Source: Balanoglossus misakiensis (Eukaryota > Animalia > Hemichordata). From it: a DNA stretch of 64,000 bases. Numbering within the stretch: the stretch's first letter is position 1; each line of letters starts with the position of its first letter. Positions 4,025 through 27,300 of this stretch are shown here, piece after piece. A program made the position numbers and the translations under genes. The stretch spans positions 3,240,735 to 3,304,734 of the forward strand of contig CM082592.2 in assembly GCA_040954595.2 (NCBI GenBank). Direction: 5' to 3'. Under the pieces are notes generated by a model. The model searched no databases. It saw only the letters and a program-made list of their open reading frames with translations, and had not been told where the DNA came from.

Positions 4025-4097
4025 GACAGAAAGAGTTAATTTGTCCTCAGATAACCCCTGGACCCCGCAGACGGTAGAAGTTGCAACTGGAAAATGA

Positions 4098-4158
4098 CCT
4101 GAGGGCAGCGCTGCCCTCAGGGCAGCAGCAAATGGGTACACAACATTCAATGACGTCA
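4098..4158 (+). promoter_or_regulatory. Putative TIR promoter: 24-bp perfect palindrome CCTGAGGGCAGCGCTGCCCTCAGG (4098-4121) and CRE TGACGTCA (4151-4158); mirrored at 20033-20093
   Basis: Motifs read directly. They lie just upstream of a consensus splice donor AAG|GTAAGT at 4266/4267. Promoter function is inferred. Confidence 0.5.
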
Positions 4159-4184
4159 CAAAAAATAGTCCCGCGTAAGAACCC

Positions 4185-7100
4185 ATGCGGCGAGTGCCAA
4201 GTCCTGGCTGCCAGTGTCCTGCATGCTGCAGATTACACCTCGTGTGGGATCCTACCGTTGTTGAAGGTAAGTTAAATTCCCGAAAGATATGTTGAAAATA
4301 CATAATATATCAACACGTTCGTACTGACTACATTAGCAGAGTTGCATGGGCAATTAAATTTGCAAACGATGTTATTTTGTTAGTAATATCTAATGGTTCG
4401 CAGCTGACCAGGCCCTCATGATGCATGCACGAGACATATATATTAAACATGACAGAAAAATTACAACTTCTTTAGAAATTCGTTGCATAGTGAATATCCG
4501 ATAATACCTCCATGTGTATATCTATCAATCTGCTCTGATCGTAGCAATATTAAGAGGTTATAACTTATAAACGGCAAGCTAGGCTATTTGGTTTTGAATA
4601 TGAGACCTCTGGGGTAAAAATTAGCATATTTGGCAGGCGGGAAATACTAGTAATCTGCCCTGAGGGCAACTCAGACATTCATTTCATATGTTTATACATG
4701 TCATTGCATAGCATCTGCCCTGAGGGCAACACTATATCTGAGCTGCCCTCAGGGCAGACATACATTTCATATGTTTGTACATGTCATTGCATAGCATCTG
4801 AGCTGCCCTCAGGGCAGACATTCATTTCATATGTACGTACATGTCATTGCATAGTATCTGCCCTGAGGGCAACACTATATCTGAGCTGCCCTCAGGGCAG
4901 ACATTCATTTCATATGTTTGTACATGTCATTGCATAGCATCTGCCCTGAGGGCAACACTATATCTGAGCTGCCCTCAGGGCAGACATACATTTCATATGT
5001 ATATATACATGTCATTGCATAGCATCTGCCCTGAGGGCAACACTATATCTGAGCTGCCCTCAGGGCAGACATTCATTTCATATGTACGTACATGTCATTG
5101 CATAGTATATAGGCCAGGGTCATCATTTTACCCCTGTATACCCATTAACTCAATTGAGCACTAGTGTGTTTTAAAAACTTCAAGTACAAGTGACAAGAAC
5201 CAAGTTGTTTGTGAACAGTGATGTTTCTCTTCTTTTTAAACCTTATCAGGTACATAAATCTGTCATTGAATACACAATGTTGCTTATATTTTTTTTACTT
5301 ATTTTAAAAGCTTTTCCAGATAAAGATATATACAACGAAATGAATACCAAAGGTAAGTTTTTTCGCAGCCTGATGAATATTCCACTTCCTTAGTTGTGCT
5401 GTCAGTGATGCATATCTTGATATCAAAAAGTTGTTAATTTTAAACTTTTTCCAGTGCAAGCTTTTTTTAAAAGCAGTGGTTCAAAAGTATACACGTTCCT
5501 ATAGTTATCTAATTCAGATTTGTTGTGATGGAGTATGCGATTTTTATATCATTAATATGAGGTTTATTACACAAATACTGCAAAGTATGCACGAGGACAT
5601 TTGCGCCAGTATCGCCCGATCGAAAAACCGCTCAGCTGAAACAGTGAGCAGCCATCTTTCTTTTTTGTTTACATGCGTTGGAGTGGGGGTGTCTTGAAAC
5701 CGTCCGCACAACAGCGTATTCCTGTACACGCTGAGTTGGGGAGCCTTGAAACTTAAGGCATATTTAACACGCGTTCCGTACGTACCGTTCCGTACGGCTT
5801 TGTTAGATTTTATGACATGGTAATTTACCTCACCCTTGTCGCTTCCATATACACACTCGGTCATTAATTTTTTTAGAAAAAATAGCAGTTTTCCTTTTAT
5901 TTTAGAAACAGTGCAGTGCCTATGGACATGTGAAGGAGGTGATAACACTATTCTTGGCAGTATTGGACCCCATACTATTACAGTGGGAACAATACGAACT
6001 TTGAAACCTGGAAACTGGCTGGTAGATAACGTAAGTTGTGTTGTAAATTTTAAAAAAAAGATTGTCACTGTTTATTGGCGTAAATTGTCATACAGTTATA
6101 CTGGTGGTATCACTGCGTGTTTCAGCATGCGCTCAAATGGATGTGGCCCATCATAACACATTACATAAGAATGCTGGTCATGACAATAGAACATTGTCAC
6201 AATTATTACATTGTATTTTTATTTTTTTATAGGCTGTTGATGCATATCTGTTCTTATTGCAAAAAGCCTTGCCACAGTCTTCAGTAAGTCATCACTATAA
6301 TATACTAATGCTCTTCACTGACTGTTTATATCTCTCACCTGGAGCGTGAATCGTCAGTGGTACAAACAAAACAATTGAAATATGCATGGACACATACATG
6401 TATTCACTAGGCATTTAAGTTTCGTTTTTGTAAATCAACGCTGCTTAATAAATGATCAGACCTGACCTCCAGGTGTCACCATGAAAACAAACACTGCTTG
6501 CTAAACTCTGATGATATTGCCCCATGTGTGAAACTCTGATAACTGAATATTTTTATATAATATGCCCCCCCCCCCTTCTATATATAAATAAATATATACA
6601 CTGAATTCTCTCAACAGAATGCTGTTATACTACCCCATCACTTGTGTAGTGAAATAGTAATGGGAAAAAGGAAAACAGTTAAAAGGAAGAAAAAACTTGC
6701 GGTAGGATTTGCAGATCAAGTAGCCTTAGGTTACAAAATAACAAATTTTAGTAGTAGTTAGTAGTACCATCTCTTCTCACCAATAAAGGATATTTCGGGT
6801 TTCGGCAGCCTATTGTCTGTCAAGTGAAATAATTTGCTAAAGCTATTGTTAATTTGCAAAATAGGGTTGAGACACTGCCCATTGAATCATTTATCCTTGC
6901 TGCTAATCTGGGGTAATGGATCCGTAAGTGATTTGCTCAGATGATTTGAAAAGCAAAAAAAGAGCTCAGTTCGTTAAGATTTTCTCAGGTGTTTTCCTGA
7001 CATGCACTAGTATTCATGTACAGATAACTAACCTTCATTTTGAAGATTCTTGGTGAATTTTGATATTTTTTATTTACGATTCTTGTATTTTTAATTGTAG

Positions 7101-10100
7101 GAACAAATAGCAGCAGCAGATAAAGTTGTAGGGGTTATTTACAACCCAGGCCACTGGACTGTCTTTGTAAGTGCGATGAATTTGTATTTACAGACTGGTA
7201 GGGTTCTGATTGAATTTTGTTTGACCAAAGTTTGCTTGGAGACAAATTTTAATTAAGATTTTAATGCAGTAATTATGCAATTGATATACATAAGTCACCT
7301 TTACCTGTATCAATTCTAATTGAAATGATAACTCGGTTTCATTTGCTCTATCATTTTTACTTTTCATCAAATATGTCAATGTTTAGTGATGCGAAGAGGT
7401 TTTGATACACCCAAATTTTGATCATCACACATAAATCTATTGTATAAATATGTGCTCTGTGACCAAGAGGGTCATTGATGGCATTTTTGTTGTACTAATT
7501 GGTACTTGTTTTATGTACAGTGTGCTGATATGGTCAAGTGCACCTTTTGCCTCTTGGATCCATTACGTCAAGATAGGGACTTTAGACTTGAAATGAACAA
7601 TTGGAGGTATGTACAGGAAATCATTTTTAGTCCTCATGGATGCAGTCTGGCGGGGACTTACAGATTGGGTCCTGTGAGTCTGTCTGTCAGCAGCTATTTC
7701 TCAGACACCCATGAACTGATTTTGTTAAAACCTGGCACATAGGCATTTTATTGTAGTGTCCGTGTGCATGTCAATTTATTTCAATTCAATCCAAGAAGGC
7801 TGCCAGGTGGCTATTTTGTTGTGAAATTTGGTTGCCTTTGGGCCGTAAATGAACTATCCCTAAACACATTTTGTTCAAAGTTGGTATAATAACATCTGGT
7901 GAGCACATCGCAAGGTACACTTAAAGCTTTAAAGAAAATATGAAAATGCATGTACTGCAAAAAGAATATGTCACAATTACACTTGATTGGCATAACTTTA
8001 TTGTCATCTGTAATGGTTTTAACTTTCTTCAGTGAGTTTCTTGGCTATCTTGGACTGAAGAGGTCATGGAAGGCACTGAAGCTACCACATGACACTCAGC
8101 AAGATGGCTCATCATGTGGTGTGTATGCATTAGAGGTGAGTGTTTTGAATTGTATTTAGCTGCTCTGTTCACACAACAGTAGACTAACCCACTAGTCACT
8201 TGGCACTTTTTTGCCTGAAGATTCTTAACCAATTCTGTTGTTCTCTAATTATCTTACCATTTGTGTGGGGTTTCGTTACCTCTCACCAAGCCATCTCATA
8301 GCTTATATATTCACTAGTCACTCGCCATAATATCAACACGAAAAACACCTGAAATTTGCTTACTATACCATAGCATGATATAGCCAATACACTGGGAACA
8401 AGTGCCTGTCTTTCTTTTTATCTGTGTTCCATTAAACCCCCAGTAATACTGTCGTTAGGCTGTTTTCCACTAGTATTTTTTTCTGATAAGAACTGCCATG
8501 TTTTGATTATGGAGTCAATACACACTAGGACAAGTTTATTAGATATGTTTTAATGCAAATTATCTTTTTCTTTATGTGAAACCTGTGTTTAATTTTGGCA
8601 GCACTAAATTGTGTGCACCAGCCTGATAATGAGTATCCATGTTTACAAATTTGTGCCGAGTATTGGGTGGAAATTTGTGACTTTCTTGTCGACAAATGAT
8701 GTTTCAGAGAAAACATTCTGATGAATTCATTGAGTGTAGGAAAATTTACATGCAGGCCAGCTTTTAACGATGGAGTGAAAAGGCTATAATTATATTAGAA
8801 ATGTCATGGTATTTCCCTACAGTTTGCTGACCTTTTTCTGCAAGGGAAAAAGGTATTTAGTTTAGACAGACAAGACACACGATTGAAAATAGCAGTAAAG
8901 ATAGTAGCAGAGATCGGTAGGTGAAGCTCAGGGCTAGATAGTCTTTTGTACAATTACCAAGTGCATGTCGTGTTTTTATCTAATCAAAGGGACAATAGCG
9001 ATTTTTAGGTTATTTTTTTCAGTGTTTATGTAAAATTTGAAGGGGAAGTCTGGTCCAGCAGATTTCTACATAATTTTGTTGCTTTGAGATTACTCTTTCA
9101 GAAATAAAAACTTTTGGCATGAATACATCACACATTTTTTTACAATAACAAGGGAAAGTTGGCAGAATTTCCAATATGGTGTTTACTGTAATTTGAATCC
9201 TAGGGAAAACACGCCAAATCTAACTTCTGCCCAACATGATGTGGGTGATACCATTTTCCGATTGGTAAACAACTGCTCTTGATTGTTTATCAACTGCGCT
9301 GTAAAGTACAATCAGTTGCTATGCAAATACACCCAGACTGGCGTACACTGCAGTGACCTCAAAGCCAGCAAATTATGTAGAAATCAGCTGGACCGGACTT
9401 CCCTTTAAATTCACTGGTCAACATGACCAAGCTGATTGCACTTACACAAGCTGTGTTCAAAAGCTGTGTCATTCAAACATCTATTGTCTGAACTTATGAT
9501 TCTAGGCTCACACTAATTATGATTTTTCCAGACTTATCTATTCAAATGTGTAGTTGACACAGAATTATAACTAACTCATGCAACTGCGATGTTATATTCA
9601 CAACCTACATTGTAATCTCTACTCTTTCTGTTCATAATCTCAACTACAGCAATTGATTGCACAATATAGTTTTGAAATTTTCATAAGAATCCTTTAAACA
9701 TTAATATGTTTACCTTGTGTAAAAAATAGTATGGTTTTACTTTTAAGGCAGGAGACTGCCCAGTGTTATTACATTATTACCTTGTATGTTTTCTGTAGAA
9801 TTTACATGCAGGTATAGGTATGGAAGAAACTATACTTCAAATGTTGTAAAATTGTTTCCGTACATACATTCTTCCCAACCCCACCACTTTTCCTTCACTG
9901 AGAATGCATTTATTAGGTTTGTGCATGTGATGCTGCATCTTTTTCCTACAAGTTAATATATGCCTGATCTTCTTTACACGCAGATTCCACCAAAAAAAGA
10001 TGTCATGGATGTGGCAAGGGTAGCCCTAGGGTAAGCATCACTGAACTCCTAATGAAGTATCGGTAATAGTTTTGACTTTTTGGACATTGGTTTCATGGCT

Positions 10101-13100
10101 GCTGGCCATAGAGTGCATAGTCAGGAGAATCAACATCCAATGTTAAATACAAAAATGAATGCTTCAGAGTGACAAATTGCAGTTTTAGGGACATAATACG
10201 ACATCTTACTAAATTGGGTCCATTTTATGACTGAGCTCACAAGCCAATGTGGTAAGCCTGCAGTGGCTTTGAATTGGTTAAATATCAAACTGGGGATAAA
10301 ATAATTGAGCATAACAATAAAATGCCATATACAAATATGTGAATGAGATTCATTTGTTATTTACATTTCAGATGTCATGTGTATCATGTGGCAGAAAGTA
10401 CCACACAAAGTGCCATAGGCAATTGAAATGCTTTATTTGTACAGTGACTTGTGGTAAGTAACTGCGATTTTTGGCTATTTGCAATACGGGAGTAGACCAA
10501 ATAACAATGGTTAAGACTCATGAATTGTGATCAAAAATCAACAAAACTTACAGCTGATGACCCTCAATTAAATGATTGCTCTCAAGTTCTTTCTCAGATA
10601 TGATCTTGCATTATTTTTTGCTTTCGTTGATTCTGTCCAGTGGATACAGAAGACCGTTCTGGTGAAGAAGTTGCTGCCATCCAAAGTGTGGACAATCAAG
10701 CTGCCGATGGTAAGATCTTGTTAAATTTGTTTTGCTTATAACAGCATTAAAACAATGTGGTCTGTAGTTGTACATACTAGCTAACTTAAGTTGTGAACTA
10801 TATCTAAAATTTCACACTTTCAGCCAATTTTTATATCTTTTGCCAATTTTGTTGGACTGTAACCAAGTTCTTTCTCAGATATGATCTTGCATTATTTTTT
10901 GCTTTCGTTGATTCTGTTCAGTGGATACAGAAGACCGTTCTGGTGAAGAAGTTGCTGCCATCCAAAGTGTGGACAATCAAGCTGCCGATGGTAAGATCTT
11001 GTTAAATTTGTTTTGCTTATAACAGCGTTAAAACAATGTGGTCAGTAGTTGTACATACTAGCTAACTTAAGTTGTGAACTATATCTAAAATTTCACACTT
11101 TCAGCCAATTTTTATATCTTTTGCCAATTTTGTTGGACTGTAACCAAGTTCTTTCTCAGATATGATCTTGCATTATTTTTTGCTTTCGTTGATTCTGTTC
11201 AGTGGATACAGAAGACCGTTCTGGTGAAGAAGTTGCTGCCATCCAAAGTGTGGACAATCAAGCTGCCGATGGTAAGATCTTGTTAAATTTGTTTTGCTTA
11301 TAACAGCATTAAAACAATGTGGTCTGTAGTTGTACATACTAGCTAACTTAAGTTGTGAACTATATCTAAAATTTCACACTTTCAGCCAATTTTTACTTGC
11401 TGTTTACTTTCTGAAGAATGTTCCCATCAGTTGCATATTGTATCAACAACACTGTCCTGATCTCTACTGAAGGTGTGAAGAAAAAAAGAAGATGTATGTA
11501 CGAAGTCCCCTCATTGTTGAAACTAGCGCATAACAAGAAGGCAAAAAGGTATGTAAGGCTAAAAGAAAAATATTGTTCCTCGTGTGATTTTTTTCGACAG
11601 AGGAACAGAAGCGGCAAGCAAAATGTTAATGTTGCTTTTTTGTTAAAAAAAAAAATCAAAATCAGAAAATGGATAAGCAGCAATCCCAAGGAACAATTCC
11701 ATTTTTCTTCCTGGCCTAAGAATACTTTCACCACAATGACATGATTGCCAGGCAGGGTCTCCGTCTTTTATGATGACCTTATTCACCCTTGTTTGGTGGA
11801 CGGAACATTTTGATATAGGCTTAACAAACTTTTTAAACTTTTCATGAATGCCACCTTAAAATATTGTCATAGATGATTTGTTTTAATTAAACATCAAGCT
11901 GTTTCATTATTAATGTTTCAGGTATAATATTTCCGAAGATGAATTACTGAGAAGAACAGGGTCACCAGAAAAACTGTGCCCATATACAATAAATTCAATG
12001 ATGAGATGCGCTAAGAGCAACATCAACAATTTAAAAGAAGATCTACGAGCCTGTGCCATCCCTATTCATAAACAATCAACATTAACTTCCTCATTCACGA
12101 GGTTGTGTGAAGGTACGATTCACCTTGAAATAAAAACATTCAATGCTGCCTGTACCTACATATGTTAACTAAGCCTAGATAGACGACTGTAAAACATGGT
12201 CTTATTTTAAGGGATGAGTTTGAATAGTATTATAATGTCATGCATTCACACATTTTCTACTTAATAACCATTTAATACTTCTAAAAGTATATGTCTGCCC
12301 TAACATTATCATGCCGAGAAACGCAACCAAATGCTTGCATGCACTTCACTAAGTATTATATCAGGGACCACACATCATGGGAGCTGCATGTATGTGTGTG
12401 TGTGTGTGAAAATTACTGCATATTGTCTTGTTGCTGCTGTTTACTTTTTTAGTAATGGGAACTTTCATTGTTTTCGTAATAGGTGAAGTTGAACACTTGT
12501 GTCAGGACTTTAAAAAAATGACTGGATCATTTATACATTTAGAAGAAACAGTTGAAGCCAACCAGGACAGACCAGAGGATAGCCTCAACAAAATGAATAT
12601 GTTTAAGTGAGTATTAAAACATAAATAACAAACAATTATTCAATCTGAGATTCAGATGAAACGAGTGGGTAAAATTGGAAGGGAGAACCATACATTTGCC
12701 TCGTGACTTCAGAATTCCCAAGGGTAGAAAGCGCATCCCCACTTATGATCTTCCATTTTGTAATAATAATAAAAAAATATTTTTAACAGGGAGACCTTGA
12801 GTGACCTGTCCAAAAGGCTGATGGGTGCATGCCATGAGGCCGATTTGGTCACGCATGGCATGACCAGTGCAGTTGTGAGTACCGTTTCACAGTTGCTGTA
12901 TGATGCTGCAGACTGTGAAAGGAAGGCATGTCTTGAAGTCCTGGTAAGTGTTAAGTTCACATGTGATGTATTTAGTTTATTTTGCTGTGCTAAAATCTGT
13001 GGAATACTTGTGTCAATTTAGGGGTTAATTAAATTGAGCCATCCCTCTTTATGAGGAGTAGGATATACATTAGCTGAAGGATATATACAATATATACAGG

Positions 13101-13415
13101 CTTCGTTGCTCTAGACCTCTATGCCAGATGACACCCTGATCAATGTGTTCCACACCAATACAAAATACACCTGTATTATGAGCATTTGAAAGTGTCACTT
13201 TTATCCACTGTGCAATAGAGAATAAGCTTGTTTTTGTTGTCTTTTAAGTGCGTATACAGTGCTTGGTGTAGTCGCAGCAATGCATTTTGGGATAATTGAC
13301 AAATTACTATTAAAACTGACTAATTATTGTCACACTTTACATTCTGTAGACTTCCAAGAGAGGGAATGAAAGCGAAGGGTCAGCGGATCTAACTTCGCTG
13401 CCAGTAAAACAGTGA
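4185..13415 (+). CDS. Transposon-borne Ulp1/C48 SUMO-protease - PHD-like finger - AP-2 (TFAP2) domain fusion protein, ~573 aa (or ~536 aa from ATG 5340)
   Basis: Exons 4185-4266, 5311-5352, 5906-6030, 6233-6283, 6618-6701, 7101-7166, 7521-7606, 8033-8135, 8823-8916, 9984-10030, 10372-10453, 10641-10709, 10922-10990, 11203-11271, 11431-11548, 11922-12112, 12483-12606, 12790-12943, 13350-13415; all GT-AG and in frame. Ulp1 motifs: LKPGNWLVDNAVDAYL, PGHWT, LLDPL, QQDGSSCGVY. PHD-like: CHGC..CVSCGRKYHTKC..CFIC. AP-2-like: VPSLLKL..RYNISEDELLRRTGSPEKL..MRCAKS..FTRLCEGEVEHLCQDF..DLVTHGM. AATAAA at 13442 and ~13617. The first exon and start codon are the least certain part. Confidence 0.85.
4653..5107 (+). 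repeat. Left subterminal tandem array, 6 units (83-bp unit plus 60/85-bp variants)
   Basis: Unit ATCTGCCCTGAGGGCAACACTATATCTGAGCTGCCCTCAGGGCAGACATACATTTCATATGTTTGTACATGTCATTGCATAGC; 10 TGCCCT(G/C)AGGGCA motifs by hand count. Confidence 0.95.
9040..9406. mobile_element. Non-autonomous TIR element (Kolobok-like ends) nested in an intron of the MULE cargo gene
   Basis: Imperfect TIRs AAGGGGAAGTCTGGTCCAGCAGATTTCTACATAATTT / AAATTATGTAGAAATCAGCTGGACCGGACTTCCCTTT; TTAA at the right end, TTGA at the left. Confidence 0.6.
10583..11395 (+). repeat. 281-bp tandem triplication, each copy containing a 69-nt exon
   Basis: Near-identical copies start at 10583, 10864 and 11145. Each holds AG-exon-GT encoding (V)DTEDRSGEEVAAIQSVDNQAAD. 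Confidence 0.95.
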
Positions 13416-14184
13416 TACTTGGAGCACCTGTTCAATCAAACAATAAAATATTGATTTTTTTTTCTATTGACAAAGGAAATGCACATGTTAATGTTCAACA
13501 GATTTGTCACATCAGTTGGTCAATTGCTTGTTCCCCCAATGTGTGACATTTGCAGTGCATGCATACTATGATTTCCAAGACTTCAATTGTTATTATTCCT
13601 CAATATACTTTTCCTCAATAAAAGTAAAGTTTTTAAAAATGGTACAAATCATGGAGAATTATGAGTAAAATATTTTATTGTGTACGCGTGAGCTAACAAT
13701 ATCTGCCAGGACAAAGTACTCAAGTAAGGCACACTTCACCAACATTAAAAAATAAAACTTGTTTAATGACAAAACAGACTTCTGAAGCCCCAGCAGCTAC
13801 TTTATACATTTCATGTTTAAACAATGTTCAGTTTTAATGGATACAGTCCAAATTACACACTAAACACTACATGACTAGTTTTATGTTATGGACCATAACA
13901 AGTAAAATCTTCAATTTGGTGAAGATAGCTAGGTGAAAACGTAATAGATCAACAATTCAACTGTTCCTGATATAGTGAACATTATGGAAAGTACATGCAG
14001 TTGCAAATGGGTGCTTAAAGTGACAATGCTCATCAGGAGACTAAACTGGCCAGTTTGTTTTCCTGATGAGTGAGTCCAGTGACTCACGAAACAACGTTGT
14101 AGAGATTATACCGCCTATCGTTTCTCCATGCAGCTACCCTTACTTTATATATTTATGTATATATAAATACATACATACATGTGC

Positions 14185-17100
14185 TCAACGGTTTTTGCAT
14201 GGTGTTATACGCCTTTTATTTGTCTTTACTTCATATTCTCTGTCTCCATCATGAGATGTGCATCTGATAGGTCTTTCAGAATTTCCACAAGATAAGTCAT
14301 AGCTATGATCAGCTGAGTTTCTCTTTCTTTTAGTCCTATCAATATCTTTCCTATATGGATGTAGTGGCTTTATGAGCTTTACCCTAGTTTGAACTTCAAA
14401 TGTGGAAAAAGCTTCATTGTGAGCCTTTTCCAACAAACTCTTTAATGAAGGGGTATCCACAAAATTCTCACTCAAACTCCAATTAAACAAATCCCTGATC
14501 ATATCTGTTGAAGTCAGCTGGGCCTTGACATCACTACATATTGGTGGTTGCACTTGTTGACACAGATCGTCTGCTGCAGGTGCAACAAGTTCAGGCTCAG
14601 TGTCCTTGTTTCTATAGGCCCATGCTAGCATACACAAACACTTTTCACTGTAACTACTGGCAATACAGGAACAAGACATATACTTAAGATCAATAACATT
14701 TAAATTGCCATTGTCATACACTGTAAATTGATCAGCCTCACACTTAAATGAGCCCGTTTGAATTATATTTTTCCCAATTTTGTCCCGCACGTTCAATATT
14801 TCAAAGCCAACATTTGATGAATGTAATTTAACAAACAACAGATGTTTACACAATTCTCCCTTTGAAAATGCCAGACATTCACATGTATACCTAATAAGGT
14901 CAACCTTATAGTGAAGGGATGCTGTCCTTTCAGATGGCACATCCCAAATACCATCTGTATCTGTCATCTTCACACGCTTGTCATACCCTAATAGAAGCAT
15001 TCTTTGTACACCCTCCTCGCTGCTTTTCTTCTTTATGGATAGTCTGCCAGCCAGATGCAACCCCTCAAGGTAACTAAAAGGTAAAACAAAGATTTTTACA
15101 TACATTTACGAACATTTGGTCACACTCTCTTGGTGTTACATTTACATGATGTCAGTCAGCAAATTTCAGCAAAGTGGTTTCATATAAAATAAATGGCACT
15201 ACCTGGAACATGGGGGAAATTTGGAATTGTGTGAAAAAAATGAATAAATATTGATAAAATTATCAAATCGAGAAGAAAACTAAGAAACAAATAGATGTAG
15301 CTTCACATGTGAGGGTCTGTGCATAGACAAATAGAGGGGGAAGACTCTACTGTCTATGGTCTGTGGTAATACACAACATTTTTGCTTACCTATAGTAGAT
15401 TTCAACTTTTGTAGAAAGCAAGTTCAAGAGGTCATCAATTCTCCTATTTGCAATTCCCTTCAAAAACTGATACTTCATAGAATGGAAAAATCTGTAAAAC
15501 AATGCCACAATTTAAATATCAATTCCATTTCTTCAAGCACATATATAATTATATCAAGTTCATGAAAACACTAGGTTAGTTTTGATCGAACTTTCAACAT
15601 TGGACTTGATGTGATAAAAAAAACACATCCCGATCTCTCCTTTAGAATATTCTCTCAAAGATCTTCCAGAGAATGTTATGCTAGTGAGTAGTTCATAAAT
15701 ATACGCACTTCTGCAGCTAACTCATGAATATTCAAGGTAGATTCTCTGCATTTAGCATTCCCAGTGTATACATATGTAAAAGCAGCGCATGATCATGTCA
15801 GAGATATATCTACATGGCTAATCAATTAAAAATCACAATTGACGGCCCTCTACTTTTTCCAAGAAGACTGAAATCATTCTTAACCTTTCTGCAATATTGT
15901 TGGTGTCTTGGCCTGCATGATAAATCCTCCGACCAAATTTGCTCCACATATGAGCCACAGAAATCCACTGATCTGTTAAGTACTTTGAGACATGCTGACT
16001 CCCAATTTCTTTATCAATTGCACCAATAACAGCAAATGATGTCTTCTCAAAGTCTTCTTTCTGCAGAAAAAAAAGTGATATGGGTTTCTTAATAAGTAAA
16101 TGTGAAACAAGCACCCTAGTGGCCAATCTTATTAGAACAGAAAAAGGGAGAACAGTGTCAGTTATAAATGAAAAAAATATGGAAAGTTTTGCTCCAAAAT
16201 TTAGGCGAAAAAAATATGGCGGTCAAGTAATTCTTGAGCAGGTTTTAGAGAAGAAAATTGCTGACGGACAGAAGGATGACAAGAGCCAATCACCCCATAT
16301 GATAACCTCCACGTCGCTGACAGCTGAGTGAAAAAATAGACAACTTTACTCATCCGATTGGAAAGCTACCGGTATTTGTACTTACCGTAGTACATTCTTT
16401 CATTTTATACAAAGCATCAATGACGGTGTTCCTTTTCTCAAGATTTGACTGGCCTGACAAACCACCTCCTGAAGTCTTCGTTAACCAACGATGAACTGCC
16501 TTTATTAATATAAAATTATATGGTAAAATATTAACAAATACCGTCAATGACAGTGTTGCTCATAATACCATCTTGATCAGGGGAAAAAAAAGATATTAAC
16601 TCGATGAGTATTTTAAAACTTGCAGACTGAATAATTACATGAAAAAAACTTGAACATTGGTGTATGTTATCTGTTCATTTAATAAGTAACGTACTACGGA
16701 ACTTTTATCTCTAAAACAACTTTAAGTTGTAGTGTCATTTTAGAGTCATATGCAGATCAGAGTGTATTAAATTCTGCTTGAACAAGTTGGCTAAACATTT
16801 CATAAATCTTGCAGTTGTCAGCATATTAAGACTGATAGCTGAAATCCATTGAGACCAAAAGTATCAGTGAGACAGTGACCAGAGAATTAAATCTAATGAC
16901 CTACCTGCAATACATGGAACCAGCACAGTAGAATATCTGACTGTGGAAATACACTCTGTAGAGCTGCTATTTCTGTTGGGTCTTTATCAACCATAATCAC
17001 TCTTTAAGAAATTAGAATTGTAATTGTTAATGCAACAAAACCCTTACCTTTTGGCATTTCTGTCACAGGGGTACTTGGATAGAACAGATATAAATTTGCT

Positions 17101-18349
17101 GAAATTGCATGTGTGTTCATTTGAATACAAGAGATCATAATATCAAAAAGCACAAATACTTTGGAAGGTGCCATCACATAAACCTTACATGACTTCATAA
17201 CATGGAAAAAGTAGCCTTTGGGTAAAAAAAACACTGTGTTATATGCAGCATAATTGTAATAGCTAACAAAGGAAGTGAAGAACATATCCTGTAATACAGC
17301 TAACAAAACCCTGAGTATTGTGAAAATAAGAACAAATCAGCAACATTAGTTAATCACTGACTTTATAACAGCTTCAAAAGTACCATATCTGAATGATTTA
17401 TTTAGCAGTAAAGAATATACCAATGAATTTACCTTGGACTGATTGTTGTAGCCTCATACAATTTAGTGAAACATCGCTCCAGAACTGCTTTGTCTTCTCT
17501 GCTGATGATGATGAATGCAATAGGCACACCATGCCCAACACCATTCTTGACAATTACAGCATAGAATGCATAACCATACGCTGTTATTCCTCTGTATGTA
17601 GCATCTATAAATACCATACTTTTTCCGAATTTCAGATATTGGTCTTTCTGAAAGGGACTCATGTAAACTATTTCTAATGGTTGGTTGGCAACTTTGGAGA
17701 ATGGTTGATAGTGGATGATGTTTGCCTGTAGATCACTTTTCAATAGTTTATCTACGCTGATGGCATCATTTCGATCAAACCTGGTTTCAGCCAAGGCCTT
17801 GTTTCGTAGATATTTTACATCTGCTGGTGTGGGGTAGTACTGGCGGTTTTTCATGTCAAGCTCCCCTCTGTTTTGTGCCCACTGAGAGCACTTAACAATA
17901 ATTTCACTGGTCTGCAAATTTTGTAAGGTCCAGAGCCTTATTAGTTCAGTCAGCTCAGGTGATATTTTGCTCACGCGATAGTCATCACTGTTAGACAGAT
18001 CGTGTCCCACATGGTGACTTCGTAATCTAACAACACACACCTGATGGGTACCCACTTTGGTGAAACAAAAAGACGCGTATGAGTTGCAGCCATTAGCACG
18101 GGTCAGATTTGGAGCTCCAGAGGATTTACCCTTTGCTTTCCCTCCTCTTTCACACCTAAAATGATAGTTCCCATCTGTTTGCTTCCGCAAACTTGTGTAT
18201 ACCCCAAGACCTCTCTCAGAAAGGGAGGCAAGATGTGTGTTAACAAATTGTTCCTCTGATCCACTCTCTACAACATGAAGTGAACGCTGAACTCCAGTTG
18301 GCTCCTTGCGTAACTTTGATTCCACAATGGACAGTACTGAAGAATTCAT
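14185..18349 (-). CDS. MULE (Mutator-like) DDE transposase with N-terminal WRKY/GCM1-type Zn finger and C-terminal SWIM finger, ~764 aa
   Basis: Exons 18349-17433, 17001-16905, 16499-16386, 16060-15885, 15491-15390, 15073-14185 splice in frame without stops. Motifs: FRCERGG..GC..HHVGH; VFIDATY (D1); GHGVPIAF; IMVDKD (D2); LLCWFH (CxxH); DTNNIAER (E); CECLAFSKGELCKH (SWIM). Confidence 0.93.
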
Positions 18350-18407
18350 CCTGTAAAATATTAAATAATGGAAAAATAGGCATTGCTGAGTAAGTGTATG
18401 AAACAAA

Positions 18408-19538
18408 TGTCTGCCCTCAGATGCTATGCAATGACATGTATAAACATATGAAATGAATGTCTGCCCTGAGGGCAGCTAAGATATAGTGTTGCCCTCAGGG
18501 CAGATGCTATGCAATGACATGTATAAACATATGAAATGAATGTCTGCCCTGAGGGCAGCTAAGACATAGTGTTGCCCTCAGGGCAGATACTATGCAATGA
18601 CATGTATAAACATATGAAATGTATGTCTGCCCTGAGGGCAGCTCAGATATAGTGTTGCCCTCAGGGCAGATACTATGCAATGACATGTATAAACATATGA
18701 AATGTATGTCTGCCCTGAGGGCAGCTCAGATATAGTGTTGCCCTCAGGGCAGATGCTATGCAATGACATGTATAAACATATGAAATGAATGTCTGCCCTG
18801 AGGGCAGCTCAGATATAGTGTTGCCCTCAGGGCAGATGCTATGCAATGACATGTATAAACATATGAAATGAATGTCTGCCCTGAGGGCAGCTCAGATATA
18901 GTGTTGCCCTCAGGGCAGATGCTATGCAATGACATGTATAAACATATGAAATGAATGTCTGCCCTGAGGGCAGCTCAGATATAGTGTTGCCCTCAGGGCA
19001 GATGCTATGCAATGACATGTATAAACATATGAAATGTATGTCTGCCCTGAGGGCAGCTCAGATATAGTGTTGCCCTCAGGGCAGATGCTATGCAATGACA
19101 TGTATAAACATATGAAATGTATGTCTGCCCTGAGGGCAGCTCAGATATAGTGTTGCCCTCAGGGCAGATGCTATGCAATGACATGTACAAACATATGAAA
19201 TGTATGTCTGCCCTGAGGGCAGCTCAGATATAGTGTTGCCCTCAGGGCAGATGCTATGCAATGACGTGTACAAACATATGAAATGTATGTCTGCCCTGAG
19301 GGCAGCTCAGATATAGTGTTGCCCTCAGGGCAGATACTATGCAATGACATGTACGTACATATGAAATGAATGTCTGCCCTGAGGGCAGCTCAGATGCTAT
19401 GCAATGACATGTACAAACATATGAAATGTATGTCTGCCCTGAGGGCAGCTCAGATATAGTGTTGCCCTCAGGGCAGATGCTATGCAATGACATGTATAAA
19501 CATATGAAATGAATGTCTGAGTTGCCCTCAGGGCAGAT
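18408..19538 (-). repeat. Right subterminal tandem array, ~14 units of the same 83-bp repeat
   Basis: Units start every 83 bp from 18421 to 19334, followed by a 60-bp variant, one more 83-bp unit and a partial unit; 26 TGCCCT(G/C)AGGGCA motifs by hand count. Confidence 0.95.
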
Positions 19539-20124
19539 TACTAGTATTTCCCGCCTGCCAAATATGCTAATTTTTACCCCAGAGGTCTCATATTCAAAAC
19601 CAAATAGCCTAGCTTGCCGTTTATAAGTTATAACCTCTTAATATTGCTACGATCAGAGCAGATTGATAGATATACACATGGAGGTATTATCGGATATTCA
19701 CTATGCAACGAATTTCTAAAGAAGTTGTAATTTTTCTGTCATGTTTAATATATATGTCTCGTGCATGCATCATGAGGGCCTGGTCAGCTGCGAACCATTA
19801 GATATTACTAACAAAATAACATCGTTTGCAAATTTAATTGCCCATGCAACTCTGCTAATGTAGTCAGTACGAACGTGTTGATATATTATGTATTTTCAAC
19901 ATATCTTTCGGGAATTTAACTTACCTTCAACAACGGTAGGATCCCACACGAGGTGTAATCTGCAGCATGCAGGACACTGGCAGCCAGGACTTGGCACTCG
20001 CCGCATGGGTTCTTACGCGGGACTATTTTTTGTGACGTCATTGAATGTTGTGTACCCATTTGCTGCTGCCCTGAGGGCAGCGCTGCCCTCAGGTCATTTT
20101 CCAGTTGCAACTTCTACCGTCTGC
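18408..20124 (-). repeat. Right terminal inverted repeat of the MULE including its array
   Basis: Reverse complement of 4067-~4940, extended inward by additional array units. Confidence 0.95.
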
Positions 20125-20154
20125 CCTGGACCCCGAAGAATCCCATGAAGCAAT

Positions 20155-20357
20155 TACCATGCGCGCGCATGGAAAAGGGCGATCTTCCACTTCCGGAAAC
20201 CCTGAGTGTTAAAATCACTTCCGGGGTATATTTTTATCGTCACTGTATACATGCAGTTCCTGTAGGTGTGATCGATGGTGGTGGTGGGTGAAAACAGCGG
20301 AGATTTTGGAAAACTTCCGCTCGTTTTCCACTTTCGGTGACATACAGTCCTCGTAAG
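20155..20357 (+). promoter_or_regulatory. Probable JAK core promoter / non-coding first exon
   Basis: CpG-richer patch with palindrome CATGCGCGCGCATG (20158-20171), three ETS-type ACTTCCG motifs (~20189, ~20217, ~20313) and a donor AAG|GTAAAT at 20357/20358. An acceptor at 21260 precedes the JAK ATG. Function inferred. Confidence 0.5.
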
Positions 20358-20478
20358 GTAAATATGTTGCAAAGGAACTGGTTCATGTTGGTACAGTCCC
20401 TCTCTATCTACCGTGGAAAGAGGGACTGCATCTGAATGTCGGTTGCAGTTGTTGATGTTTATTCTATCATGCAGCACG

Positions 20479-20915
20479 TTATATCACAGGGAGCTCTTCG
20501 TCCATATTTGTAGTGTGTATGTTTGTTTGTTTGTTTGATGTCATTGATTGATATAATAAACAAACAAAAAATCATTTATTTATTTATTTATTTATTTACA
20601 AATATGGTCACGTTTGTGTGTTGACAATTTAGGGTCAGAACCGAGTATATTCGACGGTTAGCCTTAGGGCAGTTTGTGGTTAGGGTTGGGGTTCAGTCAC
20701 TCTTCGGCATCACTCCCTACATATAAGGAGTGAGTGAACCACCAACCCTAACTCTTACCCCAACCCTAACACCAACCCTAACCTGTCAACAAATTAACAA
20801 ATGGGACAATATCTGTAAATAAATAAATAAACAAACAAACAACAAACATTCTTCTTGTTTATTTTATACAAAAAACATACACACTAAAAACGAGGAAGAG
20901 CTCCCTGTGGTTATA
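20479..20915. mobile_element. ~440-bp foldback/MITE in presumed JAK intron 1
   Basis: Arms TATATCACAGGGAGCTCTTCGTC..TAGTGTGTATG / CATACACACTA..GAGGAAGAGCTCCCTGTGGTTATA, with inner inverted (TTTA)n/(TAAA)n and GGTTAGGG/CCCTAACC tracts. Confidence 0.7.
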
Positions 20916-21317
20916 GCTCGACCCCTGATGGTTTGCCTGGTTAGGGAGGGGGTGACCACATTTGTTTCTACTATGCACATGTGCAAGGGTTTGTTCTGTA
21001 CGCATCTGTACATTAAAACATGATTGTATATACTGTAAAACGGGAAATTTTCGCAAACAATAAATTTTCGCAAACTAACGTGAGAGCAAAAAAAATGTAA
21101 AAATAAAAAGCCGCATAAAAATGTTTGTTGGAGATAATGATCAGTGTGTGCATATGAATACTGAATGAATAGCCAAAAGTTACAGACAGTGGACCTATAA
21201 CACAGTTACATTGTCACTTCACTTTCAATTAATTGTTTATTTCCGTTTTTTTCAATCCAGTATGTCAGTATTACCATCTACATCAAGCTCTGGAAGATTG
21301 TGAATTCCATTGAGAAG

Positions 21318-24300
21318 ATGGCTGTAGTGGGTGGAATATCTGTGCACGTGTATACTGGACAGAAACTCAGTTTTAAAACTGATTCATATGCAGAAGATAT
21401 ATGCTATGAAGTGGCCAGACACATCAAAGTTGGCGATGAAACGTTGTCCAACCGCGACTTCAGTCTATTCCAACTCGCTACCAAAGATATGGAGACATGG
21501 CTGAACCCTGGCAGAAAGATAACCAGGTGTATGGAACTTGTGTTCCGTATGAGATTTTTGATAAAGCGGGACAAGGGCTGTTTTCCTCTCGGCAAGGTGG
21601 CACAGGAATACTATTTCAAGCAGTGTCAGAATGACTACAGGAAGTCCGGCTGGAATACATTTAAAGATGAAGAAATCTTAGGAATGGCGGTGATGGACAT
21701 GGCACGCGCTATGATAGAAGACCGAATACCTCAAGAGCAGGTCATGAAAACGTACAGCAAATTCCTGCCGGAAAACTGGCCCACACGATATCAGTGGCCT
21801 CACAATAGACTGATCCTTAAGAAGCGTTTGAAAGATGGTCTGAAGGATTGTGGACAGCGTCAGTGGCAACCAATAGAATTGAAAATAAAGTACATAGAAC
21901 AGTTTGAAGGAAAAAGTGAAAACTTTGGGAAAGAAATTTACAACACGAAAGGGATCAAGAAAGAGGTAGTTGAAGTGAGTGGTGATAATGGAATTGTCAT
22001 CAAAGAGGTTAGTGTCAATTATACATGTACCTTTATTTTTGCTCACTCGCGTATTTTTTGTGGGCGTCCAGTTCACACCACATCTTACCATTTGTAACTA
22101 TTTTCTGCTCAAAGCAAGGTGTTTTTTGCATTTGGCAGTGGAGTCTTGCATCCAAGGAGACCTTTGCAGCCCACTGGATATCTTCCCGATGGAGCACAGT
22201 GACCTTTACACTATTTTTCGTTTGCTTTTCAGTCAGAGCATGATGACAAGATCCACTTTGATTTCTGTGATGTGACAGACGTTGTTATTTTTCCAATGTC
22301 AAAACCCGAGTCAGATTTGGTGGGATGTGAACACAACATTGGATTGGTAAAACTAGAAATCAACAGAAGAAAAGGAGACACTCTAGTATGTGGTTTATTT
22401 ACTAAAAGTTGTACAAGCCATTCACTAGCTAATCTGTGTACACACACTTGAGCTGATGTACAGATTTCTGTGTGTGTGTCCCCGTCCGTCTATGTATATA
22501 TGTGTGTCTGTCTGTCTGTGAACAGGATATCTCAAGAATGGCTGAAAGGATTTCAGGGCCTCCGTTAATGCAAATTTCTGCGCATTTCACACATTTCTGA
22601 CCATAATAAAATAATGATGGATGCGTACATCATTAGGCATTGACTTTAGCCTCTAGAGATATCATATAGAAAATAACGCTTGACCTACAGGCTGGGCAAC
22701 TGCACATGCACGTAACCTTGCAACATTCATGCACCGAAATGTTCCAATTTTCTCTCCAGCAGTGTAGTATCCTGAACACTGTTGCTTTTTGACTCAAGTT
22801 TACCCAGAGTTCTGTTCGTTGTAGTTGCTGTTCCTGTAATGGCAGTCATCTTGTGTTCGCTTGAATAAAGCATTTTTGTCTGTTAACATCGGAGTGTATT
22901 ATTGACTATCCAGGCGATCACTTTAGGCAGCATGTGGCAGATAAAACTTTGTAACAATATAGTGGTGTCACAGCCCAATTAGTAAATTTACTGAAAAAAA
23001 TTCAAAACCCAAAGGATACCTAGACCGACTAAAAAAATAGGGGCAATATGCATGTATTTCCAATATCAAATAGGAAGATTTATTACATTAAACTATAAGC
23101 TGATGTTAAATTTAATGAATTGTTTTTTCCCCAGACATTGCAAATGTGTGATCAAGATCAGGCTGTGTCATTGGTTAGCCTATTAGATGGTTACTATAGG
23201 CTTCTGGTTGATAACTATCACTACCTCTGTAAGGATTGTGCACCACCTATGCAAATGAAGTTGGCTGAAGCCAAGTGCCATGGACCAATATCGTAAGTTC
23301 ATTATATAGTCAAGCAATAACCCTCGCTGTAGGCAGGTATATGTGAGATTTGGGTACAATTCATGACATATAGCATGAGCCGTTAAGTGAGTGTTATATG
23401 GAGTGAATTGAACCCAAATCAGAGAAACACTGGAAAAAAATCACATGCGGAGTATTTTAGGATACGAACCTGCAGGCCCGGGTGCACGGTTCAGGCCATA
23501 GTCCTGTTATTTTATGCAACCATACCTTATTTTGTCTTAAGAATTGTTTGATATATTGTATCCCTTATCACTTTGTTCCCGTTTGCTTCGTAGACGGAGT
23601 CAAGCTGATGAAAAGATCCACAGTGTGGGTCTTGTTGATGGTACCTTCCTTATTCGCCAGAACCCTGATCCAACCAAGCTTGGTGGCTTCTGTTTGATGT
23701 TATGCTATGATGGCAAGATTAATAACTATCCTGTGGATGCTAATAGAGGTAAGCCGTAATCTCACTGAAGATTTCTGGAGTTTTAAATTACGCTGATTTA
23801 AAGGGACAGCAGGCTTATACCAAATTCCCCCCATAACTCATAAGTTCATTTGTGTATTTAGAGACACAGAACGATCTACTGTGATCGGACGACGAATTAG
23901 CATCAGCTGTCCCGTGAACTCTACACCATAGAACAAGTGGTGAAGCAGTTTTTTACATGAATAACCATAGACTGTAGAAAGTCTATTGAATAACTGACTT
24001 TCAAATGAACATTTGGGAATATGAAACTCAACAGCTATGACAAAATTATCCACAAATTGTTACATGGTGCTGCAGTTTGTAATTTTGTACATTTGTATTG
24101 TAGGTTTAGATGAAATGCAAATTTGGTGGAAGTATGACTGTACACGCTTTCATATAATTACAACTATTTTGATTATTGCAGGTACTGAAGTAAGTTTTCC
24201 TGATGAACCCAACAAGTTCCAAACTATCCGTCAATTTATAGATGCGTACAGGAAACCCAACCAGTGCTTACAAGTACCATTAAAACTATGTATACCGCCC

Positions 24301-27300
24301 TCCACAAAAGGTAATATGGTTCATTTCTGTTGTTGAATCCACAATTGGGATATCTTATATATCAAAATCGCTGTAAATGCCCGATAGTGAGGGCGTTTTT
24401 CCCATAGAGTTACACAGGCACACGAATCTAGGTATATGATAGATGTACGTAGAGCCGCAAATTGGAGGTTGGGATAATATGTCTGTGCATACCCACGAGT
24501 AAACTTTACTGAAACGGAGCAATCTAAATTTGGAAGTAAAATTATTGAAATAATTATGGCAGTCCATGGGGCTTTATAAAGTGAATGAGGAGCTTCAGTT
24601 GAGCCTCAGTCGTTTTTAGGTCCCATTTTGGTATGTACAATGTGTATATGGGACCTTATGGAATCAGTTGCGTCTGTATGTATGGATGTATATCAGTATG
24701 GATGTATGTATGTCTGTATGTCCGTCCACATCAAAAACTTGAAAACCGCTGCGTGTATCACCTTGATATTTGGTGTGCAGATGCAAGCTGGGCTGCAGAT
24801 GGGAGTTTGTTCAAACGAAATTGTCATTACCAAAAATATGCAAATTAGCTGGAAAAATGTGAAATTGGTCAAAACTCAGAAACTCAACAACTGCTGGTTC
24901 TTTTTTTCAGAAAAATCGCTTTTGCTCAAACGGGCTGGTGGTGGCCCAGATATTCCAAGCTCACCCAAACAAGTGTACAGACAAGACAATGCAGACAGCG
25001 GTGTATGGATTCAAGAAGATTCACTTCAGTTCAATGAAGCTGACTTGCTTGGAAAGGGCGCATTTACAAATGTTTACAAAGGAACCTACATTTCCAAATC
25101 ACCGGGAGAAAACGAACACTCGACCACGACAGTTGCCATCAAACAACTCTCGAATTCAGATAATGAAAAGAAGTTTGAGAAAGTAAGTACAGCTCATTTG
25201 CGTGGAAAATAAGATATAGTTATTGCTATTTTGGTGAATTTACGACACGTGTCTTTCAAAACCTAGTCCTGTTGGATGTAGTGCTGGACATTAGGAAACA
25301 GGGGATTCACTTACTAATCATACAAATGTTGGCTAACCTCACTAAAACTTTTGCCGATGTCACTTTTATCACTCCTCTTGTACGTGCTTTGATGCCCCTC
25401 ACTACTATGACATGGACAATTATCTAAAAATATTTGAATCACAAAATAATTAATTGAATTTATTTTCTTACAGATCTTTTTCCAAACTGCTGACAAAATT
25501 TTATTCCTGAAAAACCCACATGTGGTTGCAATAATTGGAGTTCGAAAGTTTGTTTTGGTAATGGAATACTTGCAGTTTGGTTCCCTGAATGTTTACTTAA
25601 ATGAACATGCTGAAGACATGGAATCTTCAGATCTTCTGAAAGCTGTCATTCAAGTGGCTCAAGCATTGGCATACCTGGTACATGTAATTCATTTCTCAAT
25701 TCTTTTATTGCTCAAAGGGACAAAGTCTCTCTCTCGCTGCTTTTTTTCAATTAATTATGTTTGATACAAGACACCGTTTAAGTTACGTGAATATGCAAAT
25801 GTATAGTGTTCGACCACACACAACTTCCATCCCGTTTGTAGGATATGAGAGTAAAAACTCGCCCAAAATGAATAAACGGTAGAGACTGATTAATTTTTGG
25901 CGAATTTTTCACTCTCGTGTCTACAAGTGGGATGAAAGTTGTGTGTGGTCGAACGTTGATTCACTATATATCCTTATGTAGAATAACATAAACGTTGTCT
26001 TGTATCAAACATAATTGATGGAAAAAGGGCAGCAAGAGAGAGACTTTGTCCCTTTAATTAAACTATGCGACCTTCACACATCCACATTGCCAGAAATGTA
26101 AAGCCCTGTAAAATGATTTTTCATTCTTTTCTTTAATCTGCCATTGCACAGTTAGTTTTCAGTGTACCATTATATCTACAGGAGGAAAAATCTGTGGTGC
26201 ATGGTAGTGTTTGTGCAAGGAATGTTTTGGTTGCCAGTGAACCCAGTGCATTTCGTGTCAAGTTGGCTGATCCTTTGTTTGGTAACATATACTATGCCTT
26301 GAAAACAGGTCATGAAGCAAGACTGAAGAGGTGAGCTGCGTGCAAAAGTTGCACTGTATTATTTCATCATATTGTGGACACTATACCTTTGAGTTTGAAG
26401 GGTGGAAATGTCAAATTTATTATTTGTCCCTGGTGCCAATTAAGATTCTCAAGAACACAGGACTTTCGAGTTGTTTTGAAATGCAATGATTTTAAATTCT
26501 TGTCAAGAGGGGGCGCTCCAAATTCTGCAAAAATGAGGCCTGCGCTAAATTCAGTCAAGAGGGGGCGCTCCAAATTCTGCAAAAATGAGGCCTGCACTAA
26601 ATTCAGTCACAGTGGCAAATGGAGGTCAAATCATGCAATATTCAAAATTATATTATACCAGTATATTGATGGTGTAAATCGCGCTATTTGATTGGTCGAG
26701 ACACGACACGTGACCGTGATATATTAGCCATATACCACAGTCATATATCATAGTTAAAGAAAATGCCTTTTTAAAATGTTTTATGCAAATTTTCAATATA
26801 CTGGCATAATATAATAGCAATAAAACACCCCCAGCCATGGTATACCACTCGATTTTGACCAGTTCAACTCCATATACGCACTCGCTATCGCTCGTGCGTA
26901 TATGTCGTGAACTGGTCAAAATCTCGTGATATACCATGGCTGGGGGTGTTTTATTGCTTAAGCAAAAACAGTCGGGTAACCAACTCAGTTGACATCGTAC
27001 CATCTGTATCCATATTGATCTCACTTGTTAGCGTTTTTGAAGCTGCACATCACAGTTTGCTGAAATGTCACAGAGAAACAATACAATAATTAACTCTATA
27101 TGACATGATCTAAGTAAACATCTGATCAGCTTTACCAGACTTTTCATCCTATCATCTTCACGTGCCAAAGTTGAATAATATGCTGCGTCGTTGTTTCTAT
27201 TTATGATTTCAGAGTACCATGGACTCCCCCTGAGCATCTGGTTTGCAGAGTTCGAGCAAATGCAGATCTAGATAAATTTGCCTTTGCCGTCTTCTGTTGG

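Follow-up and report, generated by a model that had tools for sequence, protein, structure and literature searches.

A Mutator transposon of Balanoglossus misakiensis with a candidate SUMO protease, a TFAP2-like region and arrays of AP-2-type sites

Results and discussion

A stretch of 64,000 nucleotides from the hemichordate Balanoglossus misakiensis (assembly GCA_040954595.2, contig CM082592.2, positions 3,240,735 to 3,304,734 of the forward strand), called the window below and numbered from its first letter, contains a Mutator transposon with two genes. One of them encodes the transposase. The other, gene A, is predicted to encode a Ulp1-type protease domain followed by a short zinc-finger-like motif, acidic repeats and a TFAP2-like region. 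The element also carries dozens of copies of a 13-bp AP-2-type palindrome, most of them in two arrays not far from its ends. Judging from the correspondence between this region and the palindrome, the gene A protein probably binds the arrays of its own element, and the chance that it thereby relieves silencing is, in our estimate, about 45%.

Structure of the element

The element (4067-20124, G...C, about 16 kb) is intact and has an identical 10-bp target-site duplication (TSD) on both sides, within the range of 8-11 bp given for Mutator-like elements (MULEs) (PMC6446971). The long terminal inverted repeats (TIRs) of 934 bp and the transposase, a DDE enzyme with a CxxH motif, a conserved tryptophan and a SWIM finger, also place it among the MULEs. 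Since the TIRs match over their whole length with 2 mismatches and the TSDs are identical, the insertion is likely to be recent. Thus these features point to an intact, recently inserted Mutator transposon. An earlier note on this DNA had described one TSD-bounded element with an intact transposase and an intact second gene, and this is borne out: the TSD is 10 bp, and the two frames are open over 764 and 522 amino acids, splicing being predicted. The possibility of an assembly artefact was rejected, as the TSD and the phase-consistent exons argue against it.

The two genes are convergent, gene A being on the forward strand and the transposase gene on the reverse strand. A strong splice donor is found in each TIR at 200 bp from the end, further inward than the terminal pair of palindromic sites and a palindrome of the cAMP-response-element (CRE) type. 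The predicted exon 4185-4266 in the left TIR would be in frame with gene A if joined to the predicted acceptor at 5320. If transcription begins at this point, the two genes would originate within identical TIRs and run inward, and each array would be situated within the first intron of the respective gene. The CRE-type palindrome TGACGTCA is perfect and is present in both TIRs; on the left it occupies positions 4151-4158, with the terminal pair of sites on one side of it and the first predicted exon on the other. If the mirror exon 20006-19925 is spliced on the right side, its stop codon overlaps the ATG codon of the transposase. One possibility is that this exon forms an upstream open reading frame that could damp translation of the transposase.

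Gene A

The exons of gene A were picked by eye from three-frame translations, and the gene models given here are predictions. All introns have GT-AG boundaries (17/17), and the predicted spliced frame of 522 amino acids contains no stop codons. Two outside checks support the model, the score of the protease domain against a Peptidase_C48 (C48) profile and the alignment with P0003, an annotated Ptychodera protein of 213 amino acids that aligns over exons 9-15 with E=5e-60.

The profile was made from nine proteins with Pfam-verified Peptidase_C48 domains (10 of the 11 proteins scanned were C48, and one weak member was dropped). Residues 29-204 of gene A score 44.3 bits against it, compared to at most 5.6 bits in 500 shuffles. 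The fragment 1-158, which does not include the motif used to collect the profile, still scores 29.5 bits. The catalytic columns contain H in 9/9, D in 8/9, Q in 9/9 and C in 9/9 members, the Q and C columns being fixed by the search pattern, and H109, D126, Q164 and C170 of gene A are in register with them. Hence the catalytic set H-D-Q-C seen by the earlier note is confirmed by the profile. No C48 match came from Pfam when Ulp1 exons were scanned singly or when the frames scanned still contained introns. What is shown for the protease is membership in the C48 family; its predicted activity is deconjugating, probably deSUMOylating, with SUMO as the putative substrate.

The ligands of the zinc-finger-like motif follow the C4HC3 order, C-x2-C-x8-C-x2-C-x4-H-x2-C-x5-C-x2-C, both in gene A and in P0003. 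The motif had been taken for a PHD chromatin reader. The order of ligands is that of a PHD finger, but a role as chromatin reader is so far unsupported: the finger is shortened, and Pfam found no PHD match either in exon 10, the main finger exon, or in P0003, which contains the whole finger. The last loop has five residues and is shorter than the canonical PHD loop. In the acidic linker that follows, a unit of 281 bp consisting of an exon and an intron is triplicated at 99% identity. At the same place P0003 carries acidic repeats of its own, different from those of gene A.

The region near the C-terminus resembles the DNA-binding domain of TFAP2 (AP-2) factors. The earlier note expected a match to the Pfam family TF_AP-2 (PF03299) here. 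This family is indeed the only one matched by exon 15, with E=1.2e-4 and 22.4 bits, just under the curated cut-off of 23.4 bits, and the only one matched by P0003 (E=0.03), whereas Pfam scans of exons 16 and 17 gave no match. The residues of TFAP2 were mapped by spacing from those named in PMC10450164. Gene A retains R254 (as R373), K257 (as K376), A256, S258 and R236, and has conservative replacements of K226 by R and of L249 by I. Altogether, of the 12 residues named in the stretch K226-N260, 7 are identical or conservatively replaced in a single ungapped register, which was reached by 17 of 5000 shuffles. The equivalents of R254 and K257, R373 and K376, are also kept in P0003; in human TFAP2A, alanine at either R254 or K257 eliminates binding (PMC10450164). 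V214 and L218 align only with a shift of two residues, and therefore Loop 1 seems to be about two residues longer than in TFAP2. This loop is lysine-rich, and it is alike in P0003. In the dimer region H384 (named in PMC12281163), V391 and L398 match in one register, and F379 does not. Predicted folds of fragments were poor (predicted local distance difference test, pLDDT, of 40 and 61), and fold searches gave no clear match. Thus the claim of a TFAP2-like domain stands as to the sole family matched and the retained R254 and K257, with the score of exon 15 taken alone just under the cut-off. The region is best called TFAP2-like and diverged, its membership in the family being short of proof. 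It was also considered whether gene A might be a host TFAP2 gene that carries an insertion. This was rejected, since the whole gene is enclosed by the TIRs and its divergence greatly exceeds what would be expected from a host orthologue.

Gene A and P0003 are identical at 31/42 positions of the finger (74%), 48/64 positions of the DNA-binding part (75%) and 21/68 positions of the acidic linker (31%). The finger and the DNA-binding part are thus conserved above the transposases (54-56%, see below), which suggests purifying selection on the domains of gene A. The end of P0003 drifts away from the alignment where gene A enters the dimer region, and its start stands in place of the protease. The gene model of P0003 is perhaps incomplete, or P0003 may represent a decayed copy.

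Palindromic sites

The palindrome TGCCCT(G/C)AGGGCA, of which the earlier note had estimated about 38 copies, occurs exactly 38 times in the element, 11 times on the left and 27 times on the right, and nowhere else in the 64-kb window. Two further copies with one mismatch are also inside the element (40 sites in total). No copies were observed in 100 dinucleotide shuffles. The 13-mer is identical to the TFAP2B consensus derived from high-throughput SELEX data (Table 1 of PMC5449588); by chance, 7.5e-6 such matches are expected in the 672 non-redundant bases of the TIR.

The majority of the copies arose as an 83-bp unit holding two inverted sites multiplied in tandem. The 38-40 copies reduce to four independent contexts, two terminal and two array sites. 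Since the flanks of these four are unrelated, it is the 13-mer itself that is kept, and not the repeat unit alone. The arrays are subterminal: the first array site is 590 bp from the end, and nearer the end there is only one pair of sites, at positions 29-58. The right array has more sites than the left one (26 and 10, respectively) and runs past the shared TIR. Accordingly, the description of the ends as arrays of AP-2 sites is right about the consensus, which is exact, but has to be modified in respect of the location of the arrays and of the number of independent contexts.

Both arrays (4650-5070 and 18460-19540) are nearly free of CpG, with an observed to expected ratio of 0.04-0.05, compared to 0.7-0.9 for the outer part of the TIR and 0.55-0.67 for flanking sequence. 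One 83-bp unit forms a strong hairpin (z=-5.1) because its two sites are inverted; the site spacings are 28 and 55 bp.

Possible functions of gene A

If the gene A protein relieves silencing, it would dimerise as TFAP2 does, and the remodelled lysine-rich Loop 1 would move its preference from the host site with a 3-bp spacer to the 13-bp site, yielding a private protein-DNA pair. Many dimers could load at each end, on the arrays near both predicted TIR promoters. The protease would then strip SUMO locally from silencing factors at both promoters, and this would create a positive loop for both genes. In flies SUMO is required for silencing guided by PIWI-interacting RNAs (piRNAs) (bioRxiv 10.1101/533091). 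The intact H-D-Q-C set, the exact motif match and the nearly CpG-free arrays speak for such a mechanism. In TFAP2 the distance between Loop 1 and Loop 2 is the ruler for the spacer length, S222 and S247 read the outer base pair, and K257 is the core reader (PMC10450164). As the positions changed in gene A are those of the spacer ruler and of the outer-pair readers, whereas K257 is kept, we infer a specificity that has shifted in co-evolution with the site. A fuller scenario, which we propose tentatively and which has somewhat less than an even chance, is that an animal transposon lineage captured a host AP-2 gene, rewired the spacer loop to a private 13-bp site, amplified this site at both ends and fused a SUMO protease to the domain. 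The product, a deSUMOylase addressed by sequence, would be the first animal counterpart of the plant VANC and KIU anti-silencing systems, having arisen independently of them and from other parts.

A number of facts weigh against relief of silencing by binding to the arrays. The motif is the form with a 5-bp spacer, which human TFAP2A and TFAP2B barely bind in calorimetry, and CCC-N3-GGG is bound with 336-355 nM compared to 18-19 nM for the canonical site, that is, about 18-fold more weakly (PMC10450164). By spacing, gene A has leucine at R217, histidine or lysine at S222, tyrosine at S247 and cysteine at R255; these changes are identical in P0003 except for one Loop 1 position, and human mutations at R217 and R255 abolish or weaken binding (PMC10450164). 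The similarity to TF_AP-2, below the cut-off as said above, comes from a single exon of 63 amino acids. The match to the helix-span-helix is weak, with three of the four named residues in register and 312 of 5000 shuffles reaching the same. The two annotated Ptychodera proteins, the transposase relative and P0003, are encoded on different contigs, which in a multi-copy family neither shows nor excludes linkage. As for the enzyme, a role in repair or transposition has been proposed for transposon Ulp1 domains, and Ulp1 and PHD domains are also found on transposases that have no array-binding domain (PMC2836005). What the Ulp1 domain does in KIU is not known according to PMC13317346, and the subterminal repeats of Muta1, another Mutator element, serve the transposase (PMC5499845). 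Thus, of the AP-2 docking suggested in the earlier note, the correspondence of domain and motif remains, but docking in the canonical AP-2 manner is so far unsupported.

Binding to the arrays is also implied if gene A is a cofactor of transposition that loads on the ends and pairs them or recruits the transposase, much as TnpA of En/Spm or the Myb-like protein of Harbinger would. Its protease would then edit SUMO, NEDD8 or ubiquitin attached to the transposase or to proteins of repair. The site pair at positions 29-58 of each end, beside the cut site, and the symmetry of sites at both ends would suit a cofactor, and a transposition or repair role was proposed for transposon Ulp1 and OTU domains (PMC2836005). 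However, 36 of the 40 sites are located further inward than the predicted first exon, at 590 bp or more from the ends, the arrays are unequal, and the transposase is complete as a MULE enzyme, having an N-terminal region and a SWIM finger of its own. We consider this role unlikely. To some extent array binding also belongs to the assumption that the arrays are an enhancer for host AP-2, or for gene A acting as a plain regulator, with gene A serving as a competitor or an autorepressor that limits copy number or tunes expression. It would agree with the recovery of the 13-mer for real TFAP2 proteins, with the substitutions of gene A at DNA-contact positions, and with the modest affinity noted above (336-355 nM for CCC-N3-GGG), as dozens of such sites could recruit host AP-2. 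On the other hand, an enhancer tuned to the host should favour the canonical GCC-N3-GGC, which is found once in the element and never in its ends, and a pure competitor would have no need for an intact protease triad; the assumption therefore seems rather improbable to us.

It is very doubtful that the repeats are foldback repeats bound by the transposase as in Muta1, with gene A an unrelated passenger and the AP-2 match coincidental. Binding and excision by the Muta1 transposase do increase with the number of subterminal repeats, a palindromic motif being preferred (PMC5499845), and the similarity of gene A to TFAP2 is below the Pfam cut-off. But gene A resembles the very family whose consensus the 13 bp match exactly, a coincidence with an expectation of about 1e-5; the Muta1 repeats adjoin the terminal motif within a TIR of 145 bp whereas the arrays here begin at 590 bp, and the domains of gene A are better conserved than the transposase.

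Ulp1 domains are common on transposons, but here a candidate address, the 13-bp site, and a candidate enzyme share one intact element. Therefore the question reduces to a binding assay, a cleavage assay and a reporter assay. If relief of silencing is indeed the function of gene A, animals gain a sequence-specific counter-defence to SUMO-dependent silencing. A transposon would have taken over a developmental transcription factor, whereas domestication usually goes in the opposite direction, and gene A would be a natural AP-2 variant with a shifted spacer preference.

Comparison with known systems

In Arabidopsis, VANC proteins bind motifs that have multiplied in tandem within introns and in non-coding DNA near the ends of the element (PMC5735166), and the KIU genes of Kaonashi, which are on elements without TIRs, are Ulp1-bearing VANC genes that demethylate their own family (PMC13317346, a review). 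Thus the plant precedent cited in the earlier note is closer than it had claimed. As in VANC and KIU systems, a short motif is amplified in tandem in the non-coding DNA of the element described here, and the predicted position of the arrays in first introns would resemble that of VANC targets. Unlike VANDAL with VANC and KIU, which are plant systems without TIRs and act on DNA methylation, this element is from an animal, has TIRs of 934 bp and is known from its sequence alone. Another difference is that the DNA-binding part of gene A resembles metazoan TFAP2, so that its target can be read from a known motif. Pfam scans of gene A exons, whose sensitivity is low, found no plant-type family.

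Among animal cut-and-paste elements, a Ulp1 domain followed by a PHD-type finger occurs in Ginger1, in MuDR elements of hydra and lancelet, and in Rehavkus (PMC2836005, PMC6446971). In Ginger1 and Rehavkus, however, these domains belong to the transposase, whereas here they are encoded by a separate gene of 18 exons together with a TFAP2-like domain, and matching arrays are present. Muta1 of Aedes aegypti, a foldback-type MULE, is similar in having TIRs with subterminal tandem repeats, but it has one gene, a TIR of 145 bp and 12-bp repeats beside the end that are bound by the transposase (PMC5499845). No tandem repeats directly behind the terminal motif, as in Muta1, are present in our element, where only a single pair precedes the arrays. 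With TFAP2 factors gene A shares the Loop 2 core R254, A256, K257 and S258, and the element has their 13-bp SELEX consensus (PMC10450164, PMC5449588). It differs from them in its high divergence, longer Loop 1, changed R217, S222, S247 and R255, and shorter dimer region, as well as in the protease and finger that stand where TFAP2 has its activation domain.

Second, non-transposase gene products that bind repeated subterminal motifs are known in En/Spm (TnpA) and Harbinger (Myb-like proteins), which belong to other superfamilies and use other DNA-binding domains than the element considered here. Maize MuDR has convergent promoters in its TIRs. To our knowledge, the gene A protein is unrelated to the MURB protein of maize MuDR. 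The resemblance is in the layout: maize MuDR has two genes, mudrA and mudrB (PMC6446971), and the prediction here is likewise of two genes running inward from identical TIRs.

Animal transposons with Ulp1 and PHD domains have thus been described before, and so has a Mutator accessory protein that binds the repeats of its own element (PMC2836005, PMC6446971, PMC5735166). A TFAP2-like domain in a transposon or matching AP-2 arrays were not reported in the literature searched, Repbase, Dfam and subscription journals being outside the search, and no described MULE with a TFAP2 domain was found, in line with the supposition of the earlier note. The term AP-2 is absent from the main text of a Mutator survey (PMC6446971) and of the hemichordate genome paper (PMC11175523).

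Transposase and related sequences

In Pfam scans, exon 1 of the transposase matched MULE (E=5e-5), and the last exon matched SWIM above the cut-off. The closest proteins found were from Ptychodera flava and Saccoglossus kowalevskii (two matches among 2081 candidates). They align with the predicted transposase over the full length, the former at 56% (9 gap positions) and the latter at 54% (8 gap positions), and their own full-length sequences match MULE with E about 1e-16. The exon model of the transposase is supported by these alignments, as they cover the whole length with few gaps. Profile scans of metagenome and viral contigs with the transposase revealed no relative.

A HMMER search of 1.84 billion representative sequences with exon 15 of gene A gave three matches, one real (P0003) and two by chance in low-complexity sequence. 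When exon 15 and P0003 served as queries in word-based searches for longer proteins, none was found; these searches are weak, as the one with exon 15 missed P0003 too. A scan of prokaryote genomes with exon 15 gave one match of 16 residues, taken as chance. Sequence searches of PDB with three exons and P0003 yielded nothing meaningful, and Atlas searches had no usable match. A search of viral contigs with AP-2 references gave seven loci, none of them AP-2. A scan for paired motifs found no loci in viral contigs and at least 120 in metagenomes; among the 120 listed, tblastn with E allowed up to 1 matched neither protein to any locus (0/120), and there was nothing array-like. Rfam gave no match. 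The features of the element are listed in Table 1.

Table 1. Coordinates of features of the element in the window
Feature	Position	Strand	Remarks
Left TSD, 10 bp	4057..4066	.	Same letters as 20125-20134
Left TIR, 934 bp, containing most of the left array	4067..5000	+	2 mismatches vs 19191-20124
Terminal site pair (one exact, one with 1 mismatch), positions 29-58 from the end	4095..4124	.	
Predicted first exon in the left TIR: ATG, 27 codons, donor GAAG/GTAAGT (slash at the exon end)	4185..4266	+	Inferred from sequence
Left subterminal array of 83-bp units (also 60-bp variants) with 10 exact sites; falls within the first intron predicted for gene A	4656..5105	.	
Gene A, 18 predicted coding exons, 522 amino acids: Ulp1/C48, C4HC3 finger, acidic repeats, TFAP2-like region	5340..13415	+	
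Ulp1/Peptidase_C48 domain, exons 2-8, residues 29-204; H109, D126, Q164, C170	5906..8916	+	
Short C4HC3 zinc-finger-like motif, residues 214-246, exons 9-10	9984..10453	+	Pattern match
Three 281-bp tandem units, each with one 69-bp exon for an acidic 23-residue repeat (linker)	10583..11395	+	
TFAP2-like DNA-binding region and putative shortened helix-span-helix, residues 320-501, exons 14-17	11473..12943	+	
Mutator transposase, 6 predicted exons, 764 amino acids; D249, D311, C332xxH335, W415, E434; SWIM finger	14185..18349	-	
Right subterminal array of 83-bp units with 26 exact sites; falls within the first intron predicted for the transposase gene	18418..19538	.	
Right TIR, including the mirror copy of the first exon (20006-19925) and a pair of terminal sites (20067-20096)	19191..20124	-	
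Right TSD	20125..20134	.	Same letters as 4057-4066

Neighbouring host sequence

A JAK-like gene is situated just downstream of the element (20125-25212), with FERM_F1/F2 matches at 21201-22094 and a kinase fragment at 24589-25209. The candidate donor of its first exon is between positions 20357 and 20358, about 230 bp from the end of the element. Since the right end of the element is upstream of this gene, the insertion has placed 27 AP-2-type sites near the promoter of a host signalling gene. A separate inverted-repeat element is found within the JAK-like gene at 26632-28481, with arms of 196 nt (96%) and 144 nt (94%) about 1.2-1.6 kb apart. It is possibly a non-autonomous DNA transposon.

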